Shown here: positions 23,297-63,841 of the stretch, piece after piece
Layout: each line of letters opens with the position of its first letter
How positions within the stretch are numbered: position 1 is the first letter of the stretch
Assembly: GCA_016936665.1 (NCBI GenBank)
Contig: JAFGXI010000010.1
Coordinates: 5,868-69,867, forward strand
Source: Bacteroidales bacterium
GTDB lineage: Bacteria > Bacteroidota > Bacteroidia > Bacteroidales > JAFGXI01
DNA: 64,000 nucleotides
Direction of reading: 5' to 3'
The notes under the pieces: model-generated
Seen by the model: the letters and a program-made list of their open reading frames with translations, nothing else
Databases searched by the model: none
What the model was told of the DNA's origin: nothing
Translations under genes and position numbers: made by a program

Positions 23297-23297
23297 G

Positions 23298-43749: not shown

Positions 43750-43750
43750 T

Positions 43751-44152
43751 TTATTTATTGTTTATATTTAATTGTTGATCGAATAACATAACGTGCGTAG
43801 ACCACCACTCGTACAAAAAGTCGATAATTTTTAACATTTGATGATAATTGCCTCTTTCAAATTCTGAGTTAAACACTGCAACTTCATAGATAAATCTCTG
43901 ATGATCGATCTTGTGCTCTTTAAAATTTAAATTTGGAATATCCTTTGCCAACTCTTCTTCCATCTTAAAATGATTTAAGCTATAATCTGTGAGCTCTGAT
44001 AGTAACTCCGAAAACTTCGAAAAACTACCTTTTTCATTGTAAACTTCAACCAATTGATTATATGTACATAAAAGCTTCTGATGGTCTCTATCTACATTTT
44101 TTATGTTGACATTGAATATTGGATCCCATTGTAATATTTGCCTTCTTTCCAT
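43751..44152 (-). CDS. Hemerythrin-like metal-binding protein (bacteriohemerythrin family)
   Basis: WDPIFNVNIKNVDRDHQKLL, HFKMEEE, HKIDHQRF and WWSTHVMLFDQQL match the His/Glu/Asp di-iron ligand pattern. Confidence 0.8.
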   Translation of the reverse strand: MERRQILQWDPIFNVNIKNVDRDHQKLLCTYNQLVEVYNEKGSFSKFSELLSELTDYSLNHFKMEEELAKDIPNLNFKEHKIDHQRFIYEVAVFNSEFERGNYHQMLKIIDFLYEWWSTHVMLFDQQLNINNK

Positions 44153-44161
44153 GATTTTTTT

Positions 44162-46345: not shown

Positions 46346-46504
46346 TTTATTATTTTTAAATAATGTCGAAAAAAAAGATGTGCTCATTTCTTTGAGTATT
46401 ATAAAATCATCCGACATTAATCGATTCGACAATTATCAAAATTTGCTTTGTTAATAAACCCAATAGAATATAAAGACAAAACAAAAACTTGATAGCTGAT
46501 AACT

Positions 46505-46540
46505 AAAAAAGGGGAATAAACAACCAAGTCTAGGTTGTTT
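46505..46540 (-). terminator. Weak hairpin/possible attenuator between the Cys/His-rich gene and the TonB-dependent receptor gene
   Basis: AAACAACC (46518-46525)/GGTTGTTT (46533-46540). On the minus strand the stem is followed, after 7 nt, by TTTTTT. Confidence 0.3.
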
Positions 46541-46559
46541 AAATGACTTAATGAGGAGG

Positions 46560-47039
46560 TTAACAAATTAGCGTGCAAAATAACAAACCAAAAGGTCGCT
46601 TTTGCACAGCCTGTTCTATTTTAGGATGGTTTAAAAATAACTTTGAGTTTTTAACATCTATATATTCAATAGTGAGTAAAGAATTAAGTTTTAAAGGAAA
46701 TAAAACCCAAATTATTTGATTTTCTGTCTCATTATCAAAAGAAAATACAGGAGACTGAAAATACTCAGCATAGCATTGACAGTGATTGTTGCGTTGGTGC
46801 TCAACAGATGTTAAATCGCAAACATGATGTTTTACTTCGTTTAAATGACATGTGCTATGTTCTTGGCAACACGAATTTTGATGGTCTATGTCTCCAATCT
46901 CGCACATTCCTTCATAACAGGCATTGCACTCATGATGCTCCACAACAAAACCATGAATATTGAATAAAATAGCTAATAGAACAATCATTGCAACTGTTTT
47001 TCTATAAACTGTTCTAATATGTATAAGCTTTGAACTCAC
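46560..47039 (-). CDS. Cys/His-rich small membrane-anchored protein (putative metal-binding)
   Basis: An N-terminal hydrophobic helix is followed by a dense Cys/His block (HHECNACYEGMCEIGDIDHQNSCCQEHSTCHLNEVKHHVCDLTSVEHQRNNHCQCY). The start is uncertain: GTG at 47039 or ATG at 46988. Confidence 0.55.
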   Translation of the reverse strand: MSSKLIHIRTVYRKTVAMIVLLAILFNIHGFVVEHHECNACYEGMCEIGDIDHQNSCCQEHSTCHLNEVKHHVCDLTSVEHQRNNHCQCYAEYFQSPVFSFDNETENQIIWVLFPLKLNSLLTIEYIDVKNSKLFLNHPKIEQAVQKRPFGLLFCTLIC

Positions 47040-49864: not shown

Positions 49865-49900
49865 AAAAGCCTTCTGCAATTTGCAAAAGGCCAATCTTTT
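49865..49900. terminator. Imperfect bidirectional hairpin between convergent genes
   Basis: GCCTTcTGCA-ATT-TGCAaAAGGC, flanked by an A-run and a T-run. Confidence 0.5.
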
Positions 49901-49913
49901 AATTATTTATTTT

Positions 49914-50900
49914 TTACTTTCCGCTATCGGAAAAATATTTCATAAACTGAGCTCGCTCTAACATCATTGGATTTTTAATGTTTTTCTGATTCAATTTGCC
50001 TCTATATTCTTCAATTGAGGCATACTTTTTTTCATCCATCCATTGCTCTAATGCATGAACTGTTTCGGTAATATGAGAAGCTCCTTTTTCATAAATAGCA
50101 GAAACCATTTGTGTAGTAGTTGCCCCTACCAATAAATTACTAATCACTTCTTTAGCAGAGTGAACACCTGTGCTAGCCGATAAATCACAAGTAACTTTAC
50201 CGCTTAAAATGCTCATCCAGCGTAAAGTATTAGCGTTATCTTCTGCCTTTGAAAAGATTGGTGCAGCAACAATTTTTTCATGTTCGATATCTACAGCCGG
50301 GCTGTAAAATTTATTAAATAAAGTGATGCCTTTAATTCCCGTTTTTGACAATTCTAACATAAAATTGGCTAAACCAGAAAAATAACTGCTTAATTTAATT
50401 GCAACAGGAATTTTCACCACATTTAAAAGCTCTTTTACAATTCTTAAATAATTCTCCTCTAATGTTCTACCGTCTTTATCAAAGTCGGCAGGCATAACAA
50501 AAAGATTAACTTCTAGTGCATCGGCACCAGCTTGTTCTACATTTTTTGCAAAAGAAACCCATTCTGCATTGTCGAAACAATTAATACTAGCAATTACAGG
50601 AATGCTTACCGAGGATTTGGTATTTTTTATTAGCTGAATGTATTGATCTACAGAGTGCTTTTTCAAATAAAAACCTAAGTAATTTTCGATATGATCGAAG
50701 GTCCCTGACATGTTATTAACGCGCTCTGCATCAATATCCATCAAAATTTGCTCTTCAAATAAAGACTTTAAAATGATAGCTCCCGCACCGGCATCAGCCC
50801 ATTCTTTGTTTTTATCGGCATGATTAGTTAACTCCGAACTACCAACAATAATGGGATTTTTAAGCGTTAATCCTAAATATTTTGTTGTTAAATTAGCCAT
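49914..50900 (-). CDS. Dihydroorotate dehydrogenase-like FMN (TIM-barrel) protein lacking the canonical catalytic Cys/Ser loop; last gene of the Mrp-MBX-like operon
   Basis: DHOD class-1-like N-terminus (LGLTLKNPIIVGSSELT, IPVIASIN, GADALEVN). Where DHOD/DPD have N-L-S-C-P-N/H this protein reads NLFVMPAD. It has no C-terminal ferredoxin domain. Confidence 0.78.
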   Translation of the reverse strand: MANLTTKYLGLTLKNPIIVGSSELTNHADKNKEWADAGAGAIILKSLFEEQILMDIDAERVNNMSGTFDHIENYLGFYLKKHSVDQYIQLIKNTKSSVSIPVIASINCFDNAEWVSFAKNVEQAGADALEVNLFVMPADFDKDGRTLEENYLRIVKELLNVVKIPVAIKLSSYFSGLANFMLELSKTGIKGITLFNKFYSPAVDIEHEKIVAAPIFSKAEDNANTLRWMSILSGKVTCDLSASTGVHSAKEVISNLLVGATTTQMVSAIYEKGASHITETVHALEQWMDEKKYASIEEYRGKLNQKNIKNPMMLERAQFMKYFSDSGK

Positions 50901-50968: not shown

Positions 50969-52774
50969 TTAACGTCCTTGATTTAAGAATTTATCAATAC
51001 CCATAGCTGCTCTGTGTCCGTTAGCAATACCATGAATTACGTCTGGTCCTTCAATAATATCGCCCCCTACAAATAACCAAGGTAAACCTTTAGCTTGGAA
51101 GTCTGCATCTACAACAATTCGACCTCTGTTATTAAATTCTATTTTAGATTTAATTTCTTCTGTTAAATAAGACAAGTCCATTCCTTGACCTATTGATTCG
51201 ATAACCATATCGCCTTCGAAAACGCGTTCTTCAGCTTGATCAAATTTTGGATTAAACATGCCTTTCTCATCGAATATCGATAGACATTTCCAAACTTTAA
51301 GCCCTTTAACTTTACCATCTTCGATGATGATTTCCTGAGGGCCGTATCCCGGAATTATAGAACAACCTTCTTCTCTTGCTTCAACAATTTCTTCTCTATC
51401 GGCAGGCATGTGCTCTTCGTCTTCTAGCGAAGTTGTAATCACATTAACTTTACCGAACTGTTGCATTTGAAGACGAGCCATAGAGCGAGTAATGTCCATT
51501 GCCACATTACCACCACCAATTACAACCACTCTTTCTTTTACAGGCACTGGTTTTTCGAGTACGATATCACGAAGTAAATCGACCGATTGGTAAACATTTT
51601 CGTTATCTGAACCGGGAATACGGGTCGAACGACCTAAATGTAAACCTGTGCCAGAGAATACTGCATCGTAATCTTTTTCTAACTGTTCCAGCGTGATGTC
51701 TGTTCCTATATTAACATTGTATTTAAATTCAACACCCAAGGCGGCGATATAATCCACATCTTTATCGATTTGGTCGTATGGTAAACGATATTCAGGAATA
51801 CCGTAACGCATCATACCCCCGGCTTTTGGTAATTTTTCGAAAATAGTACAAGAATACCCCAACAAGGCTAAATAATGTGCAGCTGATAATCCCGATGGAC
51901 CAGAACCAATGATAGCTATTTTTTTACCATTTTTAGCTAAATCGCCAGTACCTAGAATATCTTTATATTTATCGGTATCAGCCGGAATCTGATCGGCAAT
52001 ATAACGTTTTAACCAGCGGATCGATAATGCATCTCCAGTATGACCAACCGAACAAACATCTTCACATTTGTGCGTACAAATACGTCCACAAATTTCTGGA
52101 AGTGGATTAGTTTCGTATAACACACGCATACCTTCTTCCATATCGTCGTTACGAACTGCTTTAATGTATTCTGGAATACCCATATGCGCAGGACATGTTG
52201 CCGTACAAATACCGCAAGACACACATCTATCGGCCTCTTGCTGTGCCTGTTCTTTTGAATACCCTTTTACAAATTCTATAAATGAATCGCTACGCTCATC
52301 GGCATGTAATTCGCCCATATGAACGCGTTCTTTTCCGTAGAAGTTGTAATTTGGAACTGGCTTTCTCCAACCATCTTCTTTTTCGTACCAATCTTTAGGA
52401 TCAACTCCCGGAATAAATCTGAAGTTATCGGCATCGGTATCTACCCAAGTATATTCATTGGTTAATCGAAGCGAATCGGTTGTACAAATATCAACACAAA
52501 GCGCACACCAGCAACAACGACCATAATCAATCTTTGGTCTTAAGCCGCTGTCGCCACTTTTCGTGTCGATACCATCTACAGGTACCAAATCGATGGCTTG
52601 ATTTTCGCAAATTGCTTCACAAGTTCCACAACCAATACAAACATTGATGTCGTTATCGTGAAACCCCCTATATCTTGGTGCCGCTTCTCTTCCAATAGGG
52701 TTTTTAATGGTAACAGGATCTTTTAATACACCAGACCAAGCTGTAAACGGCGTAAATATATCTTTAATATTCAT
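50969..52774 (-). CDS. Fusion protein: NuoI/MbxN-like 2x[4Fe-4S] ferredoxin domain plus GltD/SudA/NfnB-like NAD(P)H-FAD oxidoreductase
   Basis: The N-terminal ~125 aa carry RYRGFH..CIGCGTCEAIC and CCWCALCVDIC (NuoI type). Next come the GltD-type Fe-S motifs CVSCGICTATCP and ICGRICTHKCEDVC. The FAD dinucleotide fold is KIAIIGSGPSGLSAA and the NAD(P)H fold is RVVVIGGGNVAMD. The C-terminus reads GGDIIEGPDVIHGIANGHRAA. Confidence 0.82.
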   Translation of the reverse strand: MNIKDIFTPFTAWSGVLKDPVTIKNPIGREAAPRYRGFHDNDINVCIGCGTCEAICENQAIDLVPVDGIDTKSGDSGLRPKIDYGRCCWCALCVDICTTDSLRLTNEYTWVDTDADNFRFIPGVDPKDWYEKEDGWRKPVPNYNFYGKERVHMGELHADERSDSFIEFVKGYSKEQAQQEADRCVSCGICTATCPAHMGIPEYIKAVRNDDMEEGMRVLYETNPLPEICGRICTHKCEDVCSVGHTGDALSIRWLKRYIADQIPADTDKYKDILGTGDLAKNGKKIAIIGSGPSGLSAAHYLALLGYSCTIFEKLPKAGGMMRYGIPEYRLPYDQIDKDVDYIAALGVEFKYNVNIGTDITLEQLEKDYDAVFSGTGLHLGRSTRIPGSDNENVYQSVDLLRDIVLEKPVPVKERVVVIGGGNVAMDITRSMARLQMQQFGKVNVITTSLEDEEHMPADREEIVEAREEGCSIIPGYGPQEIIIEDGKVKGLKVWKCLSIFDEKGMFNPKFDQAEERVFEGDMVIESIGQGMDLSYLTEEIKSKIEFNNRGRIVVDADFQAKGLPWLFVGGDIIEGPDVIHGIANGHRAAMGIDKFLNQGR

Positions 52775-52801: not shown

Positions 52802-53158
52802 TTATTTATTATTGTTCAAGACCATTGTTTTTCTGGATGCTATAAAAATGGATGTTAATGCCTTTGCTTCAGTTATTAATTCCTTAAGCAATTCTGGTTT
52901 AACTAATGCTTCATCTTTTATAAACTCTAACCAAAAAATACTTTCATCGGCCTCTTTAACGATATTTAATTTTGAAATAAAACTTTTCCCTGATTGTGCG
53001 ACACAAGCAACGCTATAAATATCTGCTACTGACGTTGAACATCTTATTATTTGACCACTGATATGTTTTCCTAAAGTATTTGTCGGCAAAGACAAACCCA
53101 ATTTAACACATCGGTGTGCAAATTCTTTTGTTCTCTCTATCAGTTCTTCTTTATTCAT
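52802..53158 (-). CDS. Four-helix-bundle protein (formerly 23S rRNA intervening-sequence protein family) inserted inside the operon
   Basis: 118 aa. The family pattern is ERTKEFAHRCVKL ... GKHISGQIIRCSTSVA ... SFISKLNIVKEADESIFWLEFI ... EAKALTSIFIASRKT. Confidence 0.8.
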   Translation of the reverse strand: MNKEELIERTKEFAHRCVKLGLSLPTNTLGKHISGQIIRCSTSVADIYSVACVAQSGKSFISKLNIVKEADESIFWLEFIKDEALVKPELLKELITEAKALTSIFIASRKTMVLNNNK

Positions 53159-53189: not shown

Positions 53190-54386
53190 TTAGCGTTCGA
53201 TTTCCGGAGGACAAGTTTGTAATGAAACCATTAAGGCATGTATATCAGCAATATTAGTATTGACCAATAAATCTTCTAACAATGCTACTCCATGCGTATA
53301 GCTTGGCCCTCTTAAATTAACTCTTCGAGGTTTATCAGAACCATCTGTAACGTAGTACATTCCGTACTCTCCACGGCCACTCTCTATTCTAACATAAGTT
53401 TCGCCTTTAGGGATACGCCAGTTCAAAACGTTAGGCATTTGCGCTCTGATATCGCCTTTTTCCGGCATTTTAGCCATAATCTGACGAATAAGATCTACCG
53501 TTTGAATGAGTTCTTGCCAGCGTACAAAAGTACGTGCATATATATCGCCCTCCTCAGCTGTAGGAGGATCGAAATCTAATTGATCGTAAAATAAATATGG
53601 ATTATCTTTTCGCACATCTCGTTTTACACCAGAAGCTCGAGCGGTTGTTCCAACCACACCATATTTATCAACCATTTCCTTAGTTACAATGCCTTGGCCA
53701 ATCGAACGTTTTTTGAAAATAGCATTATCAAACATCAATTTTTTAATTCTAACAATAAAATCATCGATGTCTTTTAAATTATCTTCCATACGTGCTTTAA
53801 AACCTTCTGGTAATAAACCTCTAACACCGCCAGGAATAATATACATATGATACACACGAGCACCCGTTAATTCCTCGAAACGATCTAAAATAAGGTCTCT
53901 TAAATAAACACCCCATTGCACACCAATACCTAAAGAATAAGTCCCCGCTTGACCAGGTACTCCTCTAAGTAAACCTTGGAGACGCGCCATCTCTAAAGAT
54001 AACATTCTTAACCATTTAGCCATATCTGGTATTTGTTTATCATAACCAGAAAGCTCTTCGGTACAAGCTGCAATTAAATATTCGTTGGTGTCGGGCTCGG
54101 CCACACACATACGAATACTTGTAGGGAAGCCTTGAACGAACAAACGACGCTCAATTAATTTTTCGAAACCTCTATGTAAGTAACCCACATGCGTTTTACC
54201 TTCAACAATCTCATCACCATTTAGCGTTAGTTCCATTGCCATATTACCGGTAACTCCGGGGTGATTAGGCCCTAACCATAATTTTGTGTATTGGTGTGAT
54301 GACAAATCTATATTTAAACTGCCATCCTCATTGACAGAAGGATATTTACTTCTATCAGGTTTGAATCCAAAAAAATTATTCAACAT
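53190..54386 (-). CDS. NuoD / group-4 hydrogenase large-subunit homolog of MbxL/MbsL type (no complete NiFe site)
   Basis: LGPNHPG..., GYLHRGFEKLIE and the length match the Complex1_49kDa fold. The NiFe CxxC positions read RMCVAE and QTCPPEIER-stop. Confidence 0.85.
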   Translation of the reverse strand: MLNNFFGFKPDRSKYPSVNEDGSLNIDLSSHQYTKLWLGPNHPGVTGNMAMELTLNGDEIVEGKTHVGYLHRGFEKLIERRLFVQGFPTSIRMCVAEPDTNEYLIAACTEELSGYDKQIPDMAKWLRMLSLEMARLQGLLRGVPGQAGTYSLGIGVQWGVYLRDLILDRFEELTGARVYHMYIIPGGVRGLLPEGFKARMEDNLKDIDDFIVRIKKLMFDNAIFKKRSIGQGIVTKEMVDKYGVVGTTARASGVKRDVRKDNPYLFYDQLDFDPPTAEEGDIYARTFVRWQELIQTVDLIRQIMAKMPEKGDIRAQMPNVLNWRIPKGETYVRIESGRGEYGMYYVTDGSDKPRRVNLRGPSYTHGVALLEDLLVNTNIADIHALMVSLQTCPPEIER

Positions 54387-54948
54387 TTTTATTCTTTTTA
54401 GCAGTTACAGGTTGATTAGGATATAATTTCTCTCTCATATAAGTTGCAGGGTCGTTTGTTGTACGGCCACCACGTGGGAAGTATGTTTTTTCTGCATACT
54501 CATGAGTATCGAAATCTCGTAGCATATGAGGCTTATCTGTCCATCCTTCGAGTACGAAATTCTCTTCGACTCTCGGACTGCCCGGAAATTGGATTCCAAA
54601 GGCTTCTCTAATCTCACGTTGGTAAGTCCAAACCTGCTTCCAAAGATGATGTGCAGAAGTCATAGTAGGATTTTCTCTTTCGATCATCACTCGAAGTGCC
54701 ACATCACATCTTTGTTGAGGGTTATTAAGGATGTACGTTAATTGGAATTTGTTGTCTTCAATCCAATCGGCGCAGCTCATCATTACAAAATGAGCAAATC
54801 CTTCGTAGTCTCTCATGTAAGTAATGGCTTCGATAACCAATTCCTTACTTATGGTTGCAAACACCATGTTATCGCGCTGATAAATGATATCTTGCAAAGC
54901 ATATTTTGTATTTAATTTTTCAACTAATTCTTTCATCTTTACATCCAT
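54376..54948 (-). CDS. NuoC / MbxK-like 30-kDa subunit
   Basis: 190 aa, located between the NuoB-like and NuoD-like genes. Complex1_30kDa-like core (HLWKQVWTYQREIREAFGIQFPGSP). Its stop overlaps the NuoD-like start by 11 nt. Confidence 0.78.
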   Translation of the reverse strand: MDVKMKELVEKLNTKYALQDIIYQRDNMVFATISKELVIEAITYMRDYEGFAHFVMMSCADWIEDNKFQLTYILNNPQQRCDVALRVMIERENPTMTSAHHLWKQVWTYQREIREAFGIQFPGSPRVEENFVLEGWTDKPHMLRDFDTHEYAEKTYFPRGGRTTNDPATYMREKLYPNQPVTAKKNKNVE

Positions 54949-54951
54949 TAT

Positions 54952-55674
54952 TTACCAGTTATAATCAGGCATATTCCAATCTTTGATAATCTTTTTTTGA
55001 TTTGCCTTATACTCATCAAAGTTTCTAGCATACTCATTTGCTTTTTCTGCTTTTCCTTCTTTGATAAGCTCTTTTAATTTTCCGAAACCTGCTAATAGTG
55101 CTTCAGGACGTGGCATACAACCTGCAATGTAAACATCGACAGGAATGTATTTGTCTAATCGATTAATCGTGCTATAACTATCGTAATACATTCCGCCGTT
55201 AATGGTACAGCTACCAAGCGCTATCACATATTTAGGAGAAGGCATTTGCTCGTAACTACGAATCACCCTTTTCAAGGTTTTTACCGATAAGTATCCTGAA
55301 ATAATGAAAGCATTCGATTGACGAGGCGTAGGACGCATTTGAACGCCAAAGCGAAACATATCATAACGAGGAGTCACCAAAGGAGGAATTTCAATACTTC
55401 CACATCCTGTTCCAAAACCTAATACCCAGATACTCTCTGATCTTGCCCAGTTTAAAAATTTCTCAACAATGGCATTTTTTGGCTTTTCTTCTTTTGGACG
55501 CTCACCACTAAAATAGTCGTAAAGCGGGTTAATTTTTATGATAGAACCATCGGGTGCTACCACTTCTCTAACTTCATCTTCAGGTCTAACAAATGTTTTT
55601 TCGCTATTCTTTGCATTTTGCTCAGAACGCTCTAACATTTCTTGTACCTTGCTATTTATATTTAGTTCAGACAT
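54952..55674 (-). CDS. NuoB / MbxJ-like Fe-S subunit with only three cysteines
   Basis: Oxidored_q6 pattern: GFGTGCGSIE, RPTPRQSNAFIISG, LGSCTINGGMYY, PVDVYIAGCMPRPEAL. It has a ~70-aa N-terminal extension. Confidence 0.85.
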   Translation of the reverse strand: MSELNINSKVQEMLERSEQNAKNSEKTFVRPEDEVREVVAPDGSIIKINPLYDYFSGERPKEEKPKNAIVEKFLNWARSESIWVLGFGTGCGSIEIPPLVTPRYDMFRFGVQMRPTPRQSNAFIISGYLSVKTLKRVIRSYEQMPSPKYVIALGSCTINGGMYYDSYSTINRLDKYIPVDVYIAGCMPRPEALLAGFGKLKELIKEGKAEKANEYARNFDEYKANQKKIIKDWNMPDYNW

Positions 55675-55692: not shown

Positions 55693-56601
55693 TTAGAAAC
55701 TGTACATTAAAATGGCAATGAAACCTAATAGTAGCGGAATCTTGAAAAACCAAGCTACCGATTGTTCTATTCTGAAACGAGGGAAAACCATACCTACGAA
55801 CACAGCATAGAAATATATTAGGAAACTTTTAATGATTAATTCAAACCAATTCGTAGCACCACCAAAAACCAAATTCATAAATAAAATGGTTTCCATTACG
55901 CCAAGAATATTTCCGCTAGTCATTAATACACCTAGATATGTTCCATGGTACTCTGTAGGAGGTCCAATTGGAATTTCGTTTGGTGCTTTTACTAAGTTAA
56001 AAGGAGAATATCCGAAAGCTCCTAATGCAGATAACATAATTGCGGCAGAGGCTACAGGATTAGTAAAAAATGACCAATGAAGAAAACCGCCTTGTTGAGC
56101 AGCAACGATTTCTGAAATTGATAAGGTTTGGTACTGAATAGCTAAAGCAATAATACCCATAGTCATTGGCAATTCAACAGCTGCGTGTTGTGCCAAACCT
56201 CTGGAAATACCGATAGCCGAGTGAGGTTGTCCGCCTTCACCGGCACCTAAAGCCATACCTAACATTCCAAATAATTGAAAGTATAAGATGAGAACCAAAT
56301 CCCCTTCAAATGAGAAGTTCATCCAAGCTTCTTTTCCGAATAAAATTGGCATAAATAAAAATAAACCAACAGCACCGGAAAAACGGAAAACTGGTCCTAA
56401 ATAGAACATTACACCATGTGTTAAAGTTGTTCGAACAGCAATATTTTTAATTAAATCGATCCATGGCTGACGAAAAGGAACGCCGTGACGTCCGGCCATG
56501 CGAGCTCCAATTTTTCTGAAAGTAACTCGCATTAACATTCCCCAGTTTAACACAATCATTAAACCGAGAAATGTATAAGCTATTTTTACGTATATATTCA
56601 T
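55693..56601 (-). CDS. NuoH / MbxM-like membrane subunit
   Basis: A polytopic membrane protein with the NuoH-type N-terminal loop RKIGARMAGRHGVPFRQPWIDLIKNI. The ATG at 56599-56601 is preferred over the TTG at 56616. Confidence 0.8.
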   Translation of the reverse strand: MNIYVKIAYTFLGLMIVLNWGMLMRVTFRKIGARMAGRHGVPFRQPWIDLIKNIAVRTTLTHGVMFYLGPVFRFSGAVGLFLFMPILFGKEAWMNFSFEGDLVLILYFQLFGMLGMALGAGEGGQPHSAIGISRGLAQHAAVELPMTMGIIALAIQYQTLSISEIVAAQQGGFLHWSFFTNPVASAAIMLSALGAFGYSPFNLVKAPNEIPIGPPTEYHGTYLGVLMTSGNILGVMETILFMNLVFGGATNWFELIIKSFLIYFYAVFVGMVFPRFRIEQSVAWFFKIPLLLGFIAILMYSF

Positions 56602-56605
56602 GTTA

Positions 56606-59600
56606 TTATCCTCCAATAATTACAAGGTAAGTGACTAATACAAACAAAACGAGGTGAAGCATATATGCTTGTCCATTTCCGCTGTAGATACGACGGGTAA
56701 AGCCTGCTGTATCGTGTAGCATTTCTGTGACTTTATCCCAGAATTTTTCGACTAATGGTATCGTAGCTGGCCAAACAGCCTTGTAGAAACCGGCAAACAC
56801 ATTCCATGCAATGTGCGTTGTTTCTGGTCTATCGGGTCTTTCACCAGAAAATACAATATCAAATTGTTTAAGTTTATGAGCCTTTCTAGTAGAAATAGCT
56901 AGGAATGCAAAAGCAATTGCAAATACACCAACAACAGTAATAAAGACTTTGGTACCACTCCAGTAACCCAACGCTGTACTTGCACTACCAGCAACCCAAT
57001 TCACTTGTCCATTAGGGAAGTATGGTGCTAATATCTCTCCAAGAGGTTGTAATACCCACTCAGGCTTAACAGAGAATACCATGATTCCCATAATTAAAAT
57101 ATAAATCGGAATTGCAAACCAAATAGAAATATCTTTAACATTTCGATGATTATCTTTTAACTGCCCCAAGAAGATGGTGTGAATTAATCGCCACAAGTAC
57201 AAGAAGGCAATACCTCCGGCAAAGAAAACGATTATCCCTTGGAAGTACCATCCTTTATCTAAAACAGCGTTATAGAATAACCACTTACCTGCAAAACCAG
57301 ATAATGGTGGCACTCCAGAAAGTGCAATAATACCAATTAGTACTGCAATAAATGCAAATGGCATTCTTGAGATTAGTCCTCCCATTTTATACATATCGTG
57401 AGTGCCCACTCTTAGTACAACTGCTCCAATCGTTAAGAAGAGGATTGCTTTGTACATAAAGTGATTAATAGAATAGGTAAAAGCTGTTAACCAACCTAAA
57501 TGTGTCATAATGGCTAAAGCAAACACTATATATCCTAACTGACCGATAGAAGAGTATGCTAACAAACGTTTTGCATCTTCTTGGAAAACAGCCATTAAGT
57601 TACCAACTAAAGCGGTAATAGCACCTACCCAACCTAAAGTATAAGCTAAGCCCGAGAATTGATTATCGGCAGCCCCCATACCAATTAATGCGAGGACTAA
57701 ACCAAATACACCGGCTTTAAGTAAGATCGCAGAAACCATCGGAGAAACATCAGATTCAGCTTCGCCGTGAGCACCAGGCAACCAAATATGCAAGCCTACA
57801 GAAGCTGTTTTAGTTAAGAAGCCAGCGATTAATAAACCATAAGCCCACTGTGGTAAATAAGTAATATGATTAATAATATCTAAGTCGGAACTTATTTGAC
57901 TTACTTGAGCCATTCCGAAAGCTGCTAATAATGCATAAGCTCCTCCAATTGAAAACAACATGTAGCTCAAACCATGTGGCATAGAGCGTTTACCTCGAAT
58001 AATTAAGAAATACGAACCGGCTGTCATTAATTCCCAACCATAAAAGAACTCCAAAGTTGTGTTAGCTTCGATAATTCCAGTAAGACCGGCATACATTAAA
58101 ATAGCTACTGGATAAAAACCGGAACGAGTTCCCTTATATGCGTAACCAGCAATTAATGCTAAAATTCCACCAACCATGAATATCACTTCGAAGATCAACC
58201 TCAAATTATCTAAACTTGGATAGACTGTGTAGAAATAATATGCCATTCCGGCAATAGCTAAAGTGTTCTTTATAAAAATTGGTAAGAAATCTAAAGCTAA
58301 TAACACGGCAACAAATAAGAATGGAATAAAATTAATTCCTGAACCAATTTCAGAAAGTTGAGCTGTGTAATAACCTATGCCATATAAACTTAAAGCAGCG
58401 ATCCAAACAGGAATAATTTTTGACCATTCAATTTTAACCGGTTCGATATGGTCGTTTTCGGCTTTAATAGCGTAGCCTAACCAACGGAATAAATAAACAG
58501 CTTCCATCATTGAACCAAACAAAATGGCAACAACCCATGCTATATTACCAGTTGCTGTTAAGTCCATTACCAAAGTCCATTTTGCGAAGAAAGATGGAAA
58601 TGGAGGAAATCCGATTAAAGCAAAAACAAAAGTTCCCATCAAGAATAAGAAAAATGGATGCTTACGAACAACCGACCAACCTTTTAATCCTTTCGATTTA
58701 ATAATTCCAGATAGCCAAAACAATCCGGCTTTTGCCAAATAATGAGAGATTAAAATTCCAAACGCAATGTAAATGGTATTTTCTCCTAAAATATCTTTAA
58801 ATCCAATAATTAGGGTTAATAAACCAAGCTGACCTATTGATGAGTACCCAAGCATACGACGTGTATTTTCTTGTTTGATACCTAAAAGGTTGCTTCCTAC
58901 AAAAGTTATTGCTCCAAGTAAGGAGATATAATAATTCCACTCAGGACCGGCAATTGCCATCAATTTATATAAAACATATAATGAAGCTGATGCTGATGCT
59001 CCAGAGATTACCGCCGATAAACCGGCATCGGAACCTTCGTAAACATCAAGCCCCCAACCATTAGCAGGAAAAGGCTTTAACTCCAAGATAACAGCCATCA
59101 TTATTAAGAAGATCGCTATTGAACCGCCTTTTACTAAATGTAAGTTTGATGTAATTAAGTCATCGATATTTAATGAGCCCACAAAGTAATACGCAAAAAT
59201 AACTCCGATAAGTAAGAAGCTAGAAATAACACTGGTTGCTAATATATATTTGAATCCGGCACCCATCGAGCGAGTACCACTTTCCAATAAAATTAAACCA
59301 GCAATTGAGATACTCGCTATTTCCATGAAAACAAATAGGTTGAAAATATCACGAGTCATAATCATAACGTTCAAGCCCATCAATAGAATTAGATATACTA
59401 CTTGAGCATTTGATCCTCTCTCCTTCAGACTGTTAAACATATAAATTCCGCCGACTAAGCCTATCGCATTGACCATTAAAGAGAAGAATGCCTCAAATGG
59501 ACCCATTAATAAGTTAATCGACAAAGGAGGCTGAAAACCTGCTGTAAATATATATTCGGGCAATTGATTACCAGAGTAAAAACCGGCAAACCACTGGAAC

Positions 59601-59731
59601 GAAATAAAAGTCATAAACGCAATGGCTGTTAGCACTAATCCTCCGGTAAAATTTCTACCCAATTTATTCAATACACCAATGGCGAATCCTACGCCTAGAG
59701 CTGTGGCTACAATGTAAATAGGTGTTACCAT
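56606..59731 (-). CDS. Double antiporter-like subunit: two NuoL/M/N-MrpD (Proton_antipo_M) modules fused in one 1041-aa protein (MbxH-MbxH' equivalent)
   Basis: There are two separate Proton_antipo_M-like cores. The first lies around NLFVFMEIASISIAGLIL...YILATSVISSFLL. The second lies around WLPGAHGEAESDVSPMVSAILLKAGVFGL...LAYSSIGQLGYI, and LGYSSIGQLGLL also occurs in the first half. Confidence 0.85.
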   Translation of the reverse strand: MVTPIYIVATALGVGFAIGVLNKLGRNFTGGLVLTAIAFMTFISFQWFAGFYSGNQLPEYIFTAGFQPPLSINLLMGPFEAFFSLMVNAIGLVGGIYMFNSLKERGSNAQVVYLILLMGLNVMIMTRDIFNLFVFMEIASISIAGLILLESGTRSMGAGFKYILATSVISSFLLIGVIFAYYFVGSLNIDDLITSNLHLVKGGSIAIFLIMMAVILELKPFPANGWGLDVYEGSDAGLSAVISGASASASLYVLYKLMAIAGPEWNYYISLLGAITFVGSNLLGIKQENTRRMLGYSSIGQLGLLTLIIGFKDILGENTIYIAFGILISHYLAKAGLFWLSGIIKSKGLKGWSVVRKHPFFLFLMGTFVFALIGFPPFPSFFAKWTLVMDLTATGNIAWVVAILFGSMMEAVYLFRWLGYAIKAENDHIEPVKIEWSKIIPVWIAALSLYGIGYYTAQLSEIGSGINFIPFLFVAVLLALDFLPIFIKNTLAIAGMAYYFYTVYPSLDNLRLIFEVIFMVGGILALIAGYAYKGTRSGFYPVAILMYAGLTGIIEANTTLEFFYGWELMTAGSYFLIIRGKRSMPHGLSYMLFSIGGAYALLAAFGMAQVSQISSDLDIINHITYLPQWAYGLLIAGFLTKTASVGLHIWLPGAHGEAESDVSPMVSAILLKAGVFGLVLALIGMGAADNQFSGLAYTLGWVGAITALVGNLMAVFQEDAKRLLAYSSIGQLGYIVFALAIMTHLGWLTAFTYSINHFMYKAILFLTIGAVVLRVGTHDMYKMGGLISRMPFAFIAVLIGIIALSGVPPLSGFAGKWLFYNAVLDKGWYFQGIIVFFAGGIAFLYLWRLIHTIFLGQLKDNHRNVKDISIWFAIPIYILIMGIMVFSVKPEWVLQPLGEILAPYFPNGQVNWVAGSASTALGYWSGTKVFITVVGVFAIAFAFLAISTRKAHKLKQFDIVFSGERPDRPETTHIAWNVFAGFYKAVWPATIPLVEKFWDKVTEMLHDTAGFTRRIYSGNGQAYMLHLVLFVLVTYLVIIGG

Positions 59732-60105
59732 TTTAGATCGTTAAATTTGTTGATTTCTAATGATTTCTTAGCTTTATAAAGCTTCATAGCATAAGCCAAC
59801 ATTAATGCTGTAATACCAAAACCGATAACAATGGCTGTTAAAACCAAAGCTTGAGGAACTGGATCTACAATTTTATCTGCTACATTATAATTTCCTTCAG
59901 TAGCAATGGTTGCATCAATAATTGGTGCTGTTTTTCCTTTAACATAGCCTAAACTCACAATTAATAGATTAATACCTGTATTCAAGATTGAAAAACCGAT
60001 AATAATTTTAATAATATTTTTTTGAGTCAAGACTCCCCAAAAGCCTACAATAATTAGCAAAAAGCCAATTATCAAGCCGATATTTCCCAGATTTATAAAT
60101 TCCAT
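59725..60105 (-). CDS. MrpC/MnhC / NuoK-like small membrane subunit (MbxG equivalent)
   Basis: 126 aa with three TM helices and an MnhC-like tail (VDPVPQALVLTAIVIGFGITALMLA). Confidence 0.8.
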   Translation of the reverse strand: MEFINLGNIGLIIGFLLIIVGFWGVLTQKNIIKIIIGFSILNTGINLLIVSLGYVKGKTAPIIDATIATEGNYNVADKIVDPVPQALVLTAIVIGFGITALMLAYAMKLYKAKKSLEINKFNDLKW

Positions 60106-60106
60106 T

Positions 60107-60808
60107 TTATAACTCTTTTTGTGATTTTTGATACTTGTTGAGGATATTAGAAATCTCTGCTCCTACTTTTAACCCAACAAAACTGTATATAATAGGTATA
60201 GCACCTGCACTAAATAATTCGCCAAACTTACCCAAGCCAATAATTTTATTGTCGAGGAAACCTCCGGCTAATAAAATACCTAATATCCCAATTATTACAA
60301 ATGAAACCCCTGAAATACTCTCTACCCAGTGAATTACATTGTAATTTAATTTGATGTTTGGATTGGCTAATATCATTAAAGCAACACCCGTTGCGATAAT
60401 CGCTCCACCTTGGAAGCCTCCTCCAGGAGTTAAGTGACCATTTATGAACACATAAATTCCAAACAAGAAAATTACAGGAATAAGAATCTTTGATGCCGTT
60501 TCCAACAACTCAGAGGTATCTCTATGTTCGATGGTTTTTTCAAAATCCTCATCTTTAAGTTTTAAGAAGAATGCGATAATAGATGCTGTAAGGAATAAAA
60601 TAGTTACCTCACCAAGCGTATCGAAGCCCCTGTATGTTACAACTACAGCAGTAACTAAATTAGCGGCACCAACCTCTTCTGCACCTTTAGTTGCGAAATG
60701 CTCAGAAATTCCCGATAAAGAATCTCTAAGTTCGTATCCGTCGTACAAGCCGTAAAATAAATAGGCCATTACGAGCAATACTAAGGTCATTAATGTATTT
60801 TTAAGCAT
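60107..60808 (-). CDS. MnhB-domain membrane subunit (MbhE/MbhF-MrpB equivalent)
   Basis: Contains NLVTAVVVTYRGFDTLGEVTILF and GHLTPGGGFQGGAIIATG, both signatures of the MnhB family. Confidence 0.8.
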   Translation of the reverse strand: MLKNTLMTLVLLVMAYLFYGLYDGYELRDSLSGISEHFATKGAEEVGAANLVTAVVVTYRGFDTLGEVTILFLTASIIAFFLKLKDEDFEKTIEHRDTSELLETASKILIPVIFLFGIYVFINGHLTPGGGFQGGAIIATGVALMILANPNIKLNYNVIHWVESISGVSFVIIGILGILLAGGFLDNKIIGLGKFGELFSAGAIPIIYSFVGLKVGAEISNILNKYQKSQKEL

Positions 60809-61058
60809 TGGATCTTTTTATTTTGTTAAGTACATAAAAGAAAATCAAAGTCGACAATCCGCTACCAATAGAGGCTTCTGTCATAGCAACATCGGGAGCC
60901 GACATTAAAATGTACAAGACCGATGCAAATAATGACACAACTCCGGCAGCAATAACCGCAACCGAAAGTTTCTTATTCAGCATTGCTACAAAAGACAAAG
61001 CAAGACTTACAATGCCAAGTACAATTGCAATGATTATATAGAGTAACTCGCTATTCAT
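60801..61058 (-). CDS. MbhD-like small membrane subunit
   Basis: 85 aa with three TM helices and the APDVAMTEASIGSGLST motif typical of the MbhD / MrpA C-terminal region. Confidence 0.72.
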   Translation of the reverse strand: MNSELLYIIIAIVLGIVSLALSFVAMLNKKLSVAVIAAGVVSLFASVLYILMSAPDVAMTEASIGSGLSTLIFFYVLNKIKRSNA

Positions 61059-61425
61059 TTTCTGGTTCTTTTACTATGTTATTATTAATATCCTCTTTAA
61101 GCTTATCAGTTTTAGTAAGCTTAGTAAGCGGAACCTTCATAAAGTAAGCCGCACGCATTAAAACGTGAGATGATACGGGGTTTGTTAAAAGAATAAAGAT
61201 GATTAACACCAAAACTCTACCAACCCAGTTTCCATCGCCCCAATTTTCGTACTGATATAGTCCTACGCCAATAAACGAGACAATAGCGCCCAGCGTAGAG
61301 GCTTTCGTTCCGGTTTGTACACGATTATATACATCCGGCATCCTGAGCAATCCTATTGCTGAAACCAACAAGGAAAAAGCTCCCATGAGCAACATTACTG
61401 CTCCTAACCATTTAATCCATTCCAT
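61051..61425 (-). CDS. MrpG/MnhG subunit
   Basis: GLLRMPDVYNRVQTGTKASTLG is the MnhG signature region. Confidence 0.85.
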   Translation of the reverse strand: MEWIKWLGAVMLLMGAFSLLVSAIGLLRMPDVYNRVQTGTKASTLGAIVSFIGVGLYQYENWGDGNWVGRVLVLIIFILLTNPVSSHVLMRAAYFMKVPLTKLTKTDKLKEDINNNIVKEPENE

Positions 61426-61427
61426 AT

Positions 61428-61694
61428 CTACAAACCTTTTTGAATGTATTTAGCAACTACAATCACTCCTATAAAGCTTAATAAGCCATATACTATAGCC
61501 ACATCAAAGTAAATCATTCGATTACTAAGCGCAGCAACAATGCTTATAATCACTAAAGTGGTGATTGTTAACGAATCGAAAGCCACAACTCTATCAACGA
61601 TAGATGGTCCCTTCGAAAAACGAATCATAGCTAATAGCAAAGCGATAGTCATCATTGCTACAGCAACAAATACTAGAGTATCCGGACTAATCAT
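61428..61694 (-). CDS. MrpF/MnhF subunit
   Basis: MrpF pattern: LAMIRFSKGPSIVDRVVAFDSL. The ATG at 61692-61694 is preferred and overlaps the MrpE stop by 8 nt. Confidence 0.8.
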   Translation of the reverse strand: MISPDTLVFVAVAMMTIALLLAMIRFSKGPSIVDRVVAFDSLTITTLVIISIVAALSNRMIYFDVAIVYGLLSFIGVIVVAKYIQKGL

Positions 61695-62175
61695 AAAGCA
61701 CCTCCAAATATTTTTCAAATTTACTAACTAATTCTTTGGTTGCAGTTTCCACATCGGTGTGCTCAACATTAATCCAGTGAATGTAGAACGTGTCGCCTTC
61801 TACCTGCAATGTAAATGTGCCTGGCGTCAATGTGATTGAGTCTGCTAAAATTAATCGAGCCATTTTAGACTTTAATCGTGTTTTCACCTTAACAATACCC
61901 GGATTAATAGGTAAACTAGGACTCAACACACGTTTAGTGACATCGATGTTGGCTTTAATTAACTCAATTAAAAAAACACCTAAATACAAAAATGTGTATA
62001 AAAATGCCTTTGGCGTTAAGTTGATGCTTGTGAACAACTCACACTTAGAGCAAAAAATGAAGCTTAAGGCTATGGATAAACCGGAGCCAATCAATAGATT
62101 GATCGGGTCTAAAGTCCAATTAAGTAGCAGCCAAGCTATCATCAATACGACAAATGAAACGAACAAATTTTTCAT
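61687..62175 (-). CDS. MrpE/MnhE subunit; first gene of the operon
   Basis: Two N-terminal TM helices and the MnhE signature ARLILADSITLTPGTFTL. Confidence 0.85.
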   Translation of the reverse strand: MKNLFVSFVVLMIAWLLLNWTLDPINLLIGSGLSIALSFIFCSKCELFTSINLTPKAFLYTFLYLGVFLIELIKANIDVTKRVLSPSLPINPGIVKVKTRLKSKMARLILADSITLTPGTFTLQVEGDTFYIHWINVEHTDVETATKELVSKFEKYLEVLYD

Positions 62176-62491: not shown

Positions 62492-63841
62492 ATGAATAAC
62501 ATAAAGATTAATCGAGGTTTAAACATTAAGCTAAAAGGCATAGCTGAGAAGACCACCAGCGAAGCCGGAACTTCAGCTTTATTTGCAATTAAACCACCGG
62601 ATTTCGAAGGGTTAATACCTAAACTTGTTGTTAAAGTTGGACATGAAGTTAAAGCGGGCTCAGTTCTATTTTACGACAAGTACAAGACCGAAATTAAATT
62701 CACATCTCCGGTAAGTGGTAAAGTTGCAATGATTGAGCGTGGAGAACGAAGAAGAATCTTGGCTGTTGTTGTAGAATCCGACAACAAGCAAGAGTACGAA
62801 GCCTTTAAACAAGGCGATCCGAGCAACATGTCTAGAGAAGACATTGTTGAGAACCTACTTAACTCAGGCGTATGGCCTTTAATAAAGCAAAGACCATATG
62901 GTATTATTGCTAAACCTGACGTTACACCTAAAGCAATCTTCATTTCTGCTTACGACTCTGCTCCTTTGGGCGTAGATTACAACTACGTTTTGAAAAATGA
63001 AAGCGAAATGTTTCAAAAAGGGATTGACGTCCTAAAACAATTAACTTCAGGCAAAGTACATCTTGGTGTTAACGGACAAGAAGCGATTATCGACACTTTT
63101 AAAAATTGTAAAAATGTTGAGCTAACAGCCTATTCCGGAAGCCACCCTTCGGGTTTAGTTGGTACACATATTAATCGATTATGCCCTATAAACAAAGGTG
63201 AACATGTATGGCAAATCAACCCTCAAGACGTACTAATTATTGGGCGCTTATTTGCAGAAGGTCGTTTCGATGCCAAAAGAACGATTGCTCTTGCAGGTTC
63301 TGAAGTCGAAAAACCACAATACTATACAAGTATGCTTGGTGCATCCATCGATTCAATCGTATCTAAAGCCATAAAAGGGGAAAACGTTCGAATTATTTCC
63401 GGAAATGTTTTAACTGGAACAAAAGTTTGTAAAAAAGGTTATGTGGGTTTTTACGATGCATTAATCAGTGTTATCCCAGAGGGAAATCACCATCAATTCT
63501 TTGGGTGGTTAACTCCAAATTTCCACAAATTTTCGATGTCTAAAACTTATTTTTCTTGGTTAATGCCTAGCAAAACGTATGCTTTAGATACAAACTTTAA
63601 TGGTGGTCATCGTGCATTTGTCGTAAGTGGACAGTACGAAAAAGTGGTACCACTGGATATCTATCCTGTCGAGTTACTTAAAGCTTGTTTGGTCGAAGAC
63701 ATCGATAAAATGGAGCAATTAGGTATTTACGAAGTCATTGAAGAAGATTTTGCATTGTGCGATTATGTTTGTACTTCTAAACAAGAAACACAAGACATCC
63801 TTCGAAAAGGTTTACAATTAATGATCAAGGAGGTTGGATAG
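62492..63841 (+). CDS. nqrA: Na+-translocating NADH-quinone reductase subunit A
   Basis: 449 aa. The NqrA N-terminus reads IKINRGLNIKLKGIAEK, and the family pattern continues throughout (GSHPSGLVGTHI, NGGHRAFVVSGQYEKV). Confidence 0.93.
   Translation: MNNIKINRGLNIKLKGIAEKTTSEAGTSALFAIKPPDFEGLIPKLVVKVGHEVKAGSVLFYDKYKTEIKFTSPVSGKVAMIERGERRRILAVVVESDNKQEYEAFKQGDPSNMSREDIVENLLNSGVWPLIKQRPYGIIAKPDVTPKAIFISAYDSAPLGVDYNYVLKNESEMFQKGIDVLKQLTSGKVHLGVNGQEAIIDTFKNCKNVELTAYSGSHPSGLVGTHINRLCPINKGEHVWQINPQDVLIIGRLFAEGRFDAKRTIALAGSEVEKPQYYTSMLGASIDSIVSKAIKGENVRIISGNVLTGTKVCKKGYVGFYDALISVIPEGNHHQFFGWLTPNFHKFSMSKTYFSWLMPSKTYALDTNFNGGHRAFVVSGQYEKVVPLDIYPVELLKACLVEDIDKMEQLGIYEVIEEDFALCDYVCTSKQETQDILRKGLQLMIKEVG

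Follow-up and report, generated by a model that had tools for sequence, protein, structure and literature searches.

Organization of the locus

The window, meaning here the whole 64-kb stretch of DNA that was analyzed, contains a minus-strand operon of 14 genes (62175-49914) which are arranged collinearly with mbsABCDEGHH'MJKLN. [quoted passage not shown] As judged from Pfam matches, a Mrp-derived module (the homologues of MbsA, B, C, D, E and G) is encoded 5' of the genes for the redox subunits, in the same order as in mbs. The operon begins with the gene for a MrpE/MbsA-like membrane subunit (61687-62175, 162 aa; MNHE, 1.5e-38), which is followed by those for a MrpF/MbsB-like subunit (61428-61718, 96 aa as listed, with an uncertain start codon; MrpF_PhaF, 9.6e-16), a MrpG/MbsC-like subunit (61051-61425, 124 aa; PhaG_MnhG_YufB, 2.2e-26), a MbhD/MbsD-like subunit (60801-61058, 85 aa; MbhD, 7e-18), an MbhE+MnhB, or MbsE-like, subunit (60107-60808, 233 aa; MnhB, 6e-24, and MbhE, 2e-8) and a NuoK/MrpC/MbsG-like subunit (59725-60105, 126 aa; Oxidored_q2, 1.9e-25).

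The H' subunit of MBS is the one that bears the lateral helix. Here, the two antiporter-like subunits are fused into a protein of 1041 aa (56606-59731), with MbsH at aa about 1-460 and MbsH' at aa about 470-1041. The protein has two Proton_antipo_M stretches and matches NCBIfam PRK08377 over aa 5-462 and PRK08668 over aa 460-1036. Its top PDB matches are 6u8y_X (H', 2.9e-56) and 6u8y_H (1.5e-45), and in related loci the match is a single unbroken stretch of ~3.1 kb. The NuoH/MbsM-like membrane anchor (55693-56616, 307 aa; Pfam NADHdh, 1.1e-40) matches 6u8y_M at 1.1e-34, compared to ~1e-13 for NDH-1, MBH and complex I. Next come the genes of the NuoB/MbsJ-like (54952-55674, 240 aa), NuoC/MbsK-like (54376-54948, 190 aa; Pfam Complex1_30kDa, 1.3e-20) and NuoD/MbsL-like (53190-54386, 398 aa) subunits, an inserted gene (52802-53158), the gene of a 601-aa fusion subunit (50969-52774) and, in last position, that of a dihydroorotate-dehydrogenase-like (DHOD-like) FMN TIM-barrel protein of 328 aa (49914-50900). 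A terminator-like hairpin of 11 pairs followed by a T-run (49868-49892) marks the end of the operon.

The inserted gene encodes a four-helix-bundle protein of the 23S rRNA intervening-sequence protein family (PF05635, 1.6e-8; TIGR02436, 6.7e-15). It is missing in most orthologous operons, a few have it inserted at this very junction, and its product is probably not a subunit of the complex. An nqrA gene adjoins the operon. Neither hyp nor hycI-like maturation genes were found within the 64-kb window, and the search for dedicated sulfur-metabolism genes in the same window returned nothing except a SulP permease. Automated annotation now calls the genes of the operon 'NADH-quinone oxidoreductase'.

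All the genes are intact. More than 50 species share the operon, at 50-90% identity, and its cofactor ligands do not vary among them. The hosts of this clade are Bacteroidota, but also Neomarinimicrobiota, Cloacimonadota, Spirochaetales and Caldithrix; among the carriers are Draconibacterium and further Prolixibacteraceae or Marinilabiliaceae. The sites where relatives were sampled are anoxic ones, such as sulfidic caves and sediments. The family is common in metagenomes (2471 matches). As for sequencing runs, the sequence itself is present only in the source metagenome, and the single RNA run of that study gave 0.00 shared words.

The large subunit and the remnants of the NiFe site

The NuoD/MbsL-like subunit has three cysteines in total (94, 108 and 392). 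The original prediction stated that Glu replaces the second Cys of both NiFe-binding pairs, and the translation bears this out: the N-terminal motif reads R-M-C94-V-A-E97 (Cys94 is TGT, 54105-54107; Glu97 is GAG, 54096-54098) and the C-terminus reads QTCPPEIER-stop (Cys392 is TGT, 53211-53213; Glu395 is GAA, 53202-53204). The alignment, which had been made by eye, proved correct. Indeed, MAFFT aligns C94 and E97 with the Cys pair of HycE R-V-C-G-I-C, and likewise C392 and E395 with that of D-P-C-Y-S-C-T-D-R, in a set consisting of E. coli HycE and NuoCD, P. furiosus MbsL and one CxxC-bearing relative. Nor is the pattern fortuitous: the N-terminal motif, RMCVAEPD or RLCVAEPD, is present with its Cys in 111 of the 111 readable sequences among the 120 closest database homologues (the remaining 9 were missed by the search pattern), and the CPPEIER ending in 120/120.

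The vestigial cysteines of MbsL, C85 and C385, align with C94 and C392, and the C85 and C385 mutants of MBS remain active (PMC7684303). Cys94 is replaced by Ala or Ser in 5 orthologues and Cys392 by Tyr in 8. Since the cysteines can be lost in orthologues and the MBS mutants are active, C94 and C392 are best read as non-catalytic remnants of a lost NiFe site. The proposal of an active site made up of the Cys/Glu pairs has therefore to be abandoned, all the more so as Glu at position 395 is a residue state also seen in ordinary NuoD.

The original prediction also held that the complex is neither a hydrogenase nor an ordinary quinone reductase, and both statements stand. Two of the four NiFe cysteines are gone, the position of the proton-relay Glu of hydrogenases is occupied by Gly47 (a conserved replacement), the subunit has no C-terminal extension, and hyp genes are missing from the window. 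The group 4 hydrogenases (MBH, 6CFW; E. coli Hyc, 7Z0S) have the same peripheral-arm fold and subunit set, and the large subunit here stops exactly at the Arg of the hydrogenase cleavage site. In contrast with these enzymes, the second residue of each CxxC pair is Glu, the small subunit has one cluster ligand fewer, and there are no maturation genes nearby. A group 4 [NiFe] hydrogenase is thus ruled out by the ligands (RMCVAE and TCPPEIER versus RxCGxC and DPCxxC), by the proton-relay position and by the E-values, which for the large subunit are 9e-32 with MbhL and 2e-17 with HycE, far weaker than with 6u8y_L of MBS (1.3e-84); complex I gives about 1e-54 to 2e-54. Regarding the quinone site, the His38 and Tyr87 of Nqo4 are replaced by Thr46 and Val95, which are both kept in 78 orthologues. 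These residues, the lack of the tandem Cys of NuoB (see below) and the type of membrane arm rule out ordinary complex I or NDH-1.

The small subunit and its three-cysteine cluster

As predicted, the NuoB/MbsJ-like subunit contains exactly three cysteines, at positions 91 (GTGCGS), 156 (LGSCTI) and 186 (AGCMPRPE). It matches 6u8y_J at 4e-63 over 163 aa, and C91, C156 and C186 are the counterparts of C28, C93 and C123 of MbsJ. This alignment is gap-free, which indicates that the shortened N-terminal loop is retained. A second Cys is missing from that loop, where NuoB has CC, HycG C..C and MbsJ C25-x-x-C28: the sequence is GTGCGS, whereas NuoB has LSCCYV, and there is therefore no tandem Cys-Cys for cluster N2.

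Conservation of the three-Cys pattern was examined in 72 orthologues from other genomes. C91, C156 and C186 are invariant (72/72), and the residue aligned with MbsJ C25, here G88, is a Gly in every one of them. In MBS, C25 is too distant to ligate the proximal cluster (PMC7684303). A hidden fourth Cys ligand was considered and rejected: the sole recurrent extra Cys, in the motif DYF[S/C] (30/72 orthologues), sits in the N-terminal extension, at a site which is Ser in the window and Ser, Cys, Leu or Thr across orthologues. The invariance of the three Cys, the constant Gly at the C25 position and the dispensability of the NiFe Cys favor a three-Cys proximal cluster over a Cys/Glu active site. 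The suggestion of an open-coordination proximal [4Fe-4S] cluster made in the original prediction coincides with the published mechanism of MBS (PMC7684303), of which this protein is a clear homologue.

The flavoprotein fusion and the DHOD-like protein

The 601-aa subunit, which the original prediction did not mention, consists of an MbsN/NuoI-like 2x[4Fe-4S] domain (aa about 9-145; PDB 6u8y_N, 3.8e-21) fused to an NfnB/SudA/GltD-like flavoprotein domain (residues 148-599; best match NfnB/SudA, NfnI-L 4.5e-74). The latter matches Fer4_20 (2x[4Fe-4S], 8.6e-30) and Pyr_redox_2 (1.6e-22), with the FAD motif at aa 290-295 and the NAD(P)H motif at aa 420-427. NCBIfam NF010590 matches the whole subunit with 878 bits. 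The fusion is found in 74/75 loci; all 17 Fe-S cysteines are invariant and both dinucleotide motifs conserved, and within the flavoprotein domain the eight Cys, GxGxxG and GGGNxAMD show no variation among 74 orthologues. The domain has two [4Fe-4S], FAD and NADPH motifs in common with NfnB/SudA (5JCA, 4YLF), the large subunit of NADH-dependent ferredoxin:NADP+ oxidoreductase, but differs in being joined to a NuoI/MbsN-like domain within a membrane complex. The next-nearest 50%-identity clusters belong to classical Mbs/Mbh-type operons with a separate NuoI-like gene (P0122, P0125 and P0138) or to an Fpo/Nuo11-like operon (P0128). Thus, the fusion seems restricted to the window's own cluster and to the Thermotoga type known from the literature.

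The DHOD-like protein matches NCBIfam NF005741 ('DHOD-like protein') with 387 bits, above the cutoff of 303. It lacks the catalytic Cys/Ser loop which, together with an orotate-binding Asn, characterizes dihydroorotate dehydrogenase (N-L-F-V-M-P versus N-L-S-C-P-N in PyrD). The gene lies immediately 3' in 48/69 loci and is missing in 21/69, and its product is a putative accessory protein or partner of the complex. The last gene of the operon in this clade is usually a DHOD-like or a CBS-pair gene; some operons (L073, L074) end with a rubrerythrin/ferritin-like gene. No NfnA/PyrK-like partner gene was found within the 64-kb window.

Assignment to the MBS/Mbx family

Because 6U8Y is, by wide margins, the best solved relative of the core subunits L, J, M, H, H' and N, the region is assigned by homology to the MBS/Mbx family, as encoding the redox core of a bacterial complex of this kind in a freshwater Bacteroidales host. 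The complex would consist of an Mrp-type, ion-translocating membrane arm (MbsA-G homologues and the fused MbsH-H'), the MbsM anchor and the peripheral subunits MbsJ, K and L. The unusual Cys pattern is the known signature of this family. The resemblance to P. furiosus MBS (6U8Y, PMC7684303) includes the gene order, the Mrp-type arm, H and H', M, J, K and L, a three-Cys proximal cluster with a loop of equal length, two vestigial NiFe Cys, each with an acidic residue after it (CVPE/CPPD in MbsL, CVAE/CPPE here), and the absence of the quinone His and Tyr. The L subunits are 40% identical and the J subunits 55%.

The two complexes also differ. In the present case the host is mesophilic and bacterial, Gly takes the place of MbsJ C25, the H and H' subunits form one 1041-aa protein, the MbsJ-like subunit has a conserved N-terminal extension of ~65 aa, and the DHOD-like FMN protein is co-transcribed. 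The main departure is that MbsN, which stands alone in P. furiosus, is fused to the NfnB/GltD-like FAD/NAD(P)H flavoprotein. This fusion makes NAD(P)H the likely donor, rather than ferredoxin as in MBS.

In 2015, a gltD-type subunit was noted in the mbx-like operons that Thermotoga and some proteobacteria possess (PMC4758237). These operons (see also T. maritima MBX, PMC9431562) share with the present one the Mrp and NuoBCDH-type subunits, a gltD-related flavoprotein in place of plain NuoI and vestigial Cys in NuoD; the rubrerythrin/ferritin-like last gene described for them also closes some operons of the present clade. They differ in their hosts, which are here Bacteroidota and neighboring phyla, and in that the last gene is here usually DHOD-like or CBS-pair. 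The kinship to the Thermotoga form is based on the description in PMC4758237 and on the full-length match to NF010590. Our literature search returned no work on a Bacteroidota form of MBS/Mbx; the gltD-bearing mbx-like kind was already known, and the Bacteroidota operon is a further member of it.

Proposed function and alternatives

The best explanation, in which we have moderate confidence, is that the operon encodes an NAD(P)H-fed sulfane sulfur reductase of the MBS type, coupled to Na+/H+ translocation. From the homology, the architecture and the conserved cofactor-binding motifs, we infer the following scheme for its substrate and donor, for the direction in which electrons move and for the coupling to ions. 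Electrons from NAD(P)H would enter at the FAD of the NfnB/GltD-like domain and pass through the two [4Fe-4S] clusters of that domain, then through the two clusters of the fused MbsN-like domain, to the proximal [4Fe-4S] cluster of the MbsJ-like subunit, held by C91, C156 and C186 only. The free iron of this cluster, facing the hydrophobic MbsL/MbsM chamber, would reduce the S-S bonds of polysulfide or of another sulfane sulfur compound, and this reduction would be coupled to Na+/H+ translocation. Polysulfide is proposed as a substrate purely by homology; the mbx of T. maritima is induced by S0 (PMC9431562).

The electron donor of P. furiosus MBS is ferredoxin. The potentials are about -320 mV for NAD(P)H and about -260 mV for polysulfide; the driving force from NAD(P)H to polysulfide is small, and ion pumping with NAD(P)H would be near the thermodynamic limit. 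If the NfnB-like FAD were bifurcating, one electron would go to the low-potential [4Fe-4S] chain and the other to a high-potential partner such as the DHOD-like FMN protein, and the MBS module would receive a ferredoxin-like driving force for ion pumping, but we consider such bifurcation very doubtful.

The same architecture could be read in the opposite direction, as an ion-translocating ferredoxin:NAD(P)+ oxidoreductase analogous to Rnf, according to the older 'Mbx' model. Reduced ferredoxin would give its electrons to the MbsN-like clusters, the GltD/NfnB-like domain would reduce NAD(P)+ and the three-Cys cluster would only serve for coupling. This type of domain works reversibly in Nfn and glutamate synthase, and the fusion is conserved. 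The gltD subunit of mbx-like operons has been interpreted as the site of NAD(P)+ reduction (PMC4758237). However, coupling in the superfamily is driven by chemistry at the chamber beside the proximal cluster (PMC7684303, PMC8165549), which a route from ferredoxin to NAD(P)+ would bypass, the original Mbx model has been superseded by sulfane reduction for the archaeal enzyme, and a strict three-Cys site with Gly as the fourth position suggests a catalytic cluster. We therefore judge this reading unlikely. An alternative NAD(P)H:menaquinone oxidoreductase, with a GltD-type input and, in the MbsL/J/M chamber, a quinone site of non-canonical type, seems slightly less probable again. Bacteroidota use menaquinone, and the driving force from NADH to menaquinone would be ample for both antiporter-like pumps. 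In MBS this chamber is hydrophobic, and its width equals that of the complex I chamber (PMC7684303). Against this stand the conserved Thr46 and Val95, the lack of the NuoB tandem CC and the fact that MBS is more closely related than NDH-1, Fpo or complex I; the adjoining nqrA also suggests that Na+-NQR already covers the NADH:quinone activity.

The loss of NiFe ligands and the foreign small gene inside the operon might evoke the decaying, non-functional remnant of a group 4 hydrogenase operon. This is extremely improbable and is refuted by the conservation of the operon: the intact genes, the invariant ligands, the number of species at 50-90% identity and the abundance of metagenome matches speak against decay.

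Implications

The chemistry proposed for MBS, the reduction of S-S bonds at a site-differentiated [4Fe-4S] cluster, is so far based on one hyperthermophilic archaeal enzyme. Independent comparative support for this mechanism comes from the widespread, mesophilic clade described here, in which the three ligating Cys never vary, Gly always stands in place of the non-ligating fourth Cys and the vestigial NiFe Cys can be dispensed with. For experiments, this clade also provides a more tractable bacterial system that has an NAD(P)H module of its own. If the complex is active, complex-I-like enzymes that link sulfur respiration to NAD(P)H would be common in Bacteroidales of anoxic freshwater, caves and sediments.

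Homology to the P. furiosus MBS

The subunits of the operon resemble those of MBS, the membrane-bound sulfane sulfur reductase of Pyrococcus furiosus (subunits MbsA-N, PDB 6U8Y). The NuoD-like large subunit (53190-54386, minus strand, 398 aa on translation) matches MbsL much better than it does complex I 49-kDa subunits (~1e-54), MbhL (9e-32) or HycE (2e-17). The NuoB-like small subunit (54952-55674, minus strand, 240 aa) matches MbsJ without gaps over 163 residues (4e-63), and the NuoH-like protein matches MbsM (1e-34, versus 1e-13 for anything else). The 1041-aa antiporter-like protein is matched by MbsH in its N-terminal half and by MbsH' over residues 479-1034; the counterparts of these two subunits are thus fused, unlike in MBS. 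The N-terminus of a 601-aa protein (50969-52774, minus strand) matches MbsN (3.8e-21), and Pfam assigns the small membrane proteins encoded upstream to MrpE, MrpF, MrpG, MbhD, MbhE/MnhB and NuoK. Since these identities line up in this way, the genes between 62175 and 50969 (minus strand) follow the order of mbsABCDEGHH'MJKLN. A strong hairpin followed by a T-run (49892-49868) lies 3' of the last gene of the operon.

The cysteine pattern of the large and small subunits

Translation reproduces the predicted open reading frames, residues and codons: Cys94 (54105-54107), Glu97 (54096-54098), Cys392 (53211-53213) and Glu395 (53202-53204) in the large subunit, which ends with QTCPPEIER-stop, and exactly three cysteines (91, 156 and 186) in the small subunit. 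The original prediction had aligned these residues by eye. The placement was correct, since alignments of both subunits put them at the same positions. In the MAFFT alignment of large subunits, which included E. coli HycE and NuoCD, P. furiosus MbsL and other relatives, C94/E97 fall on both cysteines of HycE RVCGIC, and C392/E395 on those of DPCYSCTDR. In the small-subunit alignment, C91, C156 and C186 are invariant columns, and a single cysteine takes the place of the CC of NuoB and of the two spaced cysteines of HycG.

The structure of MBS shows that its proximal cluster is bound only by MbsJ C28, C93 and C123; C25 is too distant to be a ligand because its loop is three residues shorter than that of MBH (PMC7684303). 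MbsL retains two of the four NiFe cysteines, C85 and C385; polysulfide reduction is not lost when C25, C85 or C385 is mutated (PMC7684303). C91, C156 and C186 correspond to the three MbsJ ligands, and C94 and C392 to MbsL C85 and C385 (RMCVAE...TCPPEIER, compared to RICVPE...NCPPDIDR in MbsL). The position of MbsJ C25 is occupied by a glycine, G88. The odd cysteine pattern is therefore the known signature of the MBS/Mbx family; the observation was real, and its interpretation largely right.

Scanning a single genome for each species gave 80 loci. Most belong to Bacteroidales, Marinilabiliaceae, Prolixibacteraceae, Lentimicrobiaceae and Flavobacteriales MAGs, and a few to Neomarinimicrobiota, Cloacimonadota, Spirochaetales and Caldithrix. 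Sulfidic caves and sediments account for many of the loci, and the nearest genome locus (88% identity) belongs to a Bacteroidales MAG recovered from such a cave; the window itself originates from a freshwater metagenome. The three cysteines are invariant in 72/72 small-subunit orthologs. The loop always reads G-x-G-T-G-C-G, so the fourth-cysteine position is a glycine throughout. The only recurrent extra cysteine alternates with Ser, Leu and Thr (Ser in the window) and lies in an N-terminal extension. This extension of ~65 aa (residues 1-68, with the motif APDGSIIxxNPxxDYF[S/C]) is conserved across the clade and absent from P. furiosus MbsJ.

The conservation expected for the Cys/Glu pairs holds for half of each: Glu97 and Glu395 are invariant in 78 large-subunit orthologs, but five have Ala or Ser in place of Cys94 (L069, L071, L072, L073 and L077) and eight have Tyr in place of Cys392. 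Among representatives of 50%-identity clusters, the C..[DE]/C..[DE] state is characteristic of a group of relatives with Mbs/Mbh-like or Fpo-like contexts, where sampled; NuoD-type proteins have D/N-Y...E and true hydrogenases C-C-C-C. NuoD, too, normally has an acid at position 395. These comparisons argue against the proposal that the Cys/Glu pairs form the catalytic site and suggest that the feature under selection is the three-Cys cluster.

The fused flavoprotein subunit and the genes that follow it

Residues 9-145 of the 601-aa subunit resemble MbsN/NuoI and contain two ferredoxin-type cluster motifs. Residues 148-599 comprise a Fer4_20 domain, an FAD motif (GxGxxG, 290-295), an NAD(P)H motif (GGGNVAMD, 420-427) and a GGD motif; they are nearest to NfnB/NfnI-L/SudA (~1e-74), more remotely to glutamate synthase small chains (1e-53) and dihydropyrimidine dehydrogenase (1e-41). 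NCBIfam NF010590 ("putative oxidoreductase") spans the entire protein with 878 bits, slightly below its cutoff of 946. This fusion to an NfnB-like flavoprotein distinguishes the complex from MBS. Both parts form one ORF in 74/75 loci, and there is little or no variation in the 17 Fe-S cysteines or in either dinucleotide motif. Among the next-nearest clusters sampled, P0122, P0125 and P0138 have a stand-alone NuoI-like gene in their operons, and the operon of P0128 is Fpo/Nuo11-like. In Thermotoga and some proteobacteria, a gltD-type flavoprotein takes the place of NuoI in mbx-like operons (PMC4758237), and the mbx of T. maritima is induced by S0 (PMC9431562). For the Bacteroidota form, a literature search came up empty.

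The next gene (49914-50900, minus strand) encodes a dihydroorotate-dehydrogenase-like FMN protein (NF005741, 387 bits) without the catalytic loop (NLFVMP in place of NLSCPN). It directly follows the fused subunit gene in 48 of 69 loci (~70%). Elsewhere, that place is taken by a CBS-pair protein of ~156 aa (L003, L009, L015, L020, L025, L029, L034, L047, L050, L053 and L062), a rubrerythrin/ferritin-like protein (L073 and L074) or an NfnA/PyrK-like protein with a 508-aa ORF (L079). Because it is missing from some loci, where other genes replace it, the FMN protein is accessory rather than core. The variation between lineages at this position may reflect exchangeable partners with a regulatory or electron-exit role.

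A gene for a four-helix-bundle "23S rRNA intervening-sequence protein" (PF05635/TIGR02436; 52802-53158, minus strand) lies inside the respiratory operon. Homologs occupy the identical mbsL-like/mbsN-like junction in L034 and L038 (61-64% identical), L058 and L015 (another subfamily) and L002 (truncated); most loci have just a short spacer.

Elsewhere in the window, a cluster of four minus-strand genes (43423-47039) may serve in the uptake or sensing of metals. It encodes an HMA heavy-metal-associated protein, a hemerythrin-like protein, a TonB-dependent receptor and a Cys/His-rich ORF (46560-47039, 159 aa, no match in Pfam). On the plus strand (17792-25601), the gene for a PBP1C-type penicillin-binding protein comes after that for a bacterial alpha-2-macroglobulin of 1834 aa; this pairing recurs in bacteria and is unrelated to the MBS-like operon.

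Possible function

The complex is not a [NiFe] hydrogenase, as predicted: glutamate replaces the second cysteine of each pair, Gly47 aligns to the Glu of the GPxHxxxxEP motif, and the search of the 64-kb window found no hyp gene. The large subunit already stops at the Arg at which those of hydrogenases are cleaved, which makes a protease unnecessary. Nor is it an ordinary quinone reductase, again as proposed: His38 and Tyr87 of T. thermophilus Nqo4 align with Thr46 and Val95, which are conserved in orthologs (GP[NQ]HPG[VI]TG and CV[AP]EP). A non-canonical NAD(P)H:menaquinone reductase would be a rival explanation. The divergent neighbour of the operon is nqrA (62492-63841, plus strand, cut by the window end), the first gene of the Na+-translocating NADH:quinone reductase, which suggests that NADH:quinone activity is handled by another enzyme, and also suggests a sodium-based energy economy.

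The sequences establish the cofactor sites and the homology; substrate, donor, direction and coupling are inferred. In the best-supported route, NAD(P)H would reduce the FAD of the fused subunit, and electrons would pass through its four [4Fe-4S] clusters to the three-Cys proximal cluster, whose open iron would reduce sulfane sulfur inside a hydrophobic chamber. This reduction would be coupled to Na+/H+ movement via the Mrp-type arm. The only sulfur-related gene in the 64-kb window encodes a SulP permease. The main weakness of the NAD(P)H to polysulfide reading is energetic, as it yields little free energy compared to ferredoxin to polysulfide. The old Mbx model, a ferredoxin:NAD(P)+ oxidoreductase, is the other rival; a bifurcating arrangement using the NfnB-like flavin is the least likely. 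The locus adds a new, uncharacterised bacterial member to the MBS/Mbx family, one that carries a fused input module of the NAD(P)H type.
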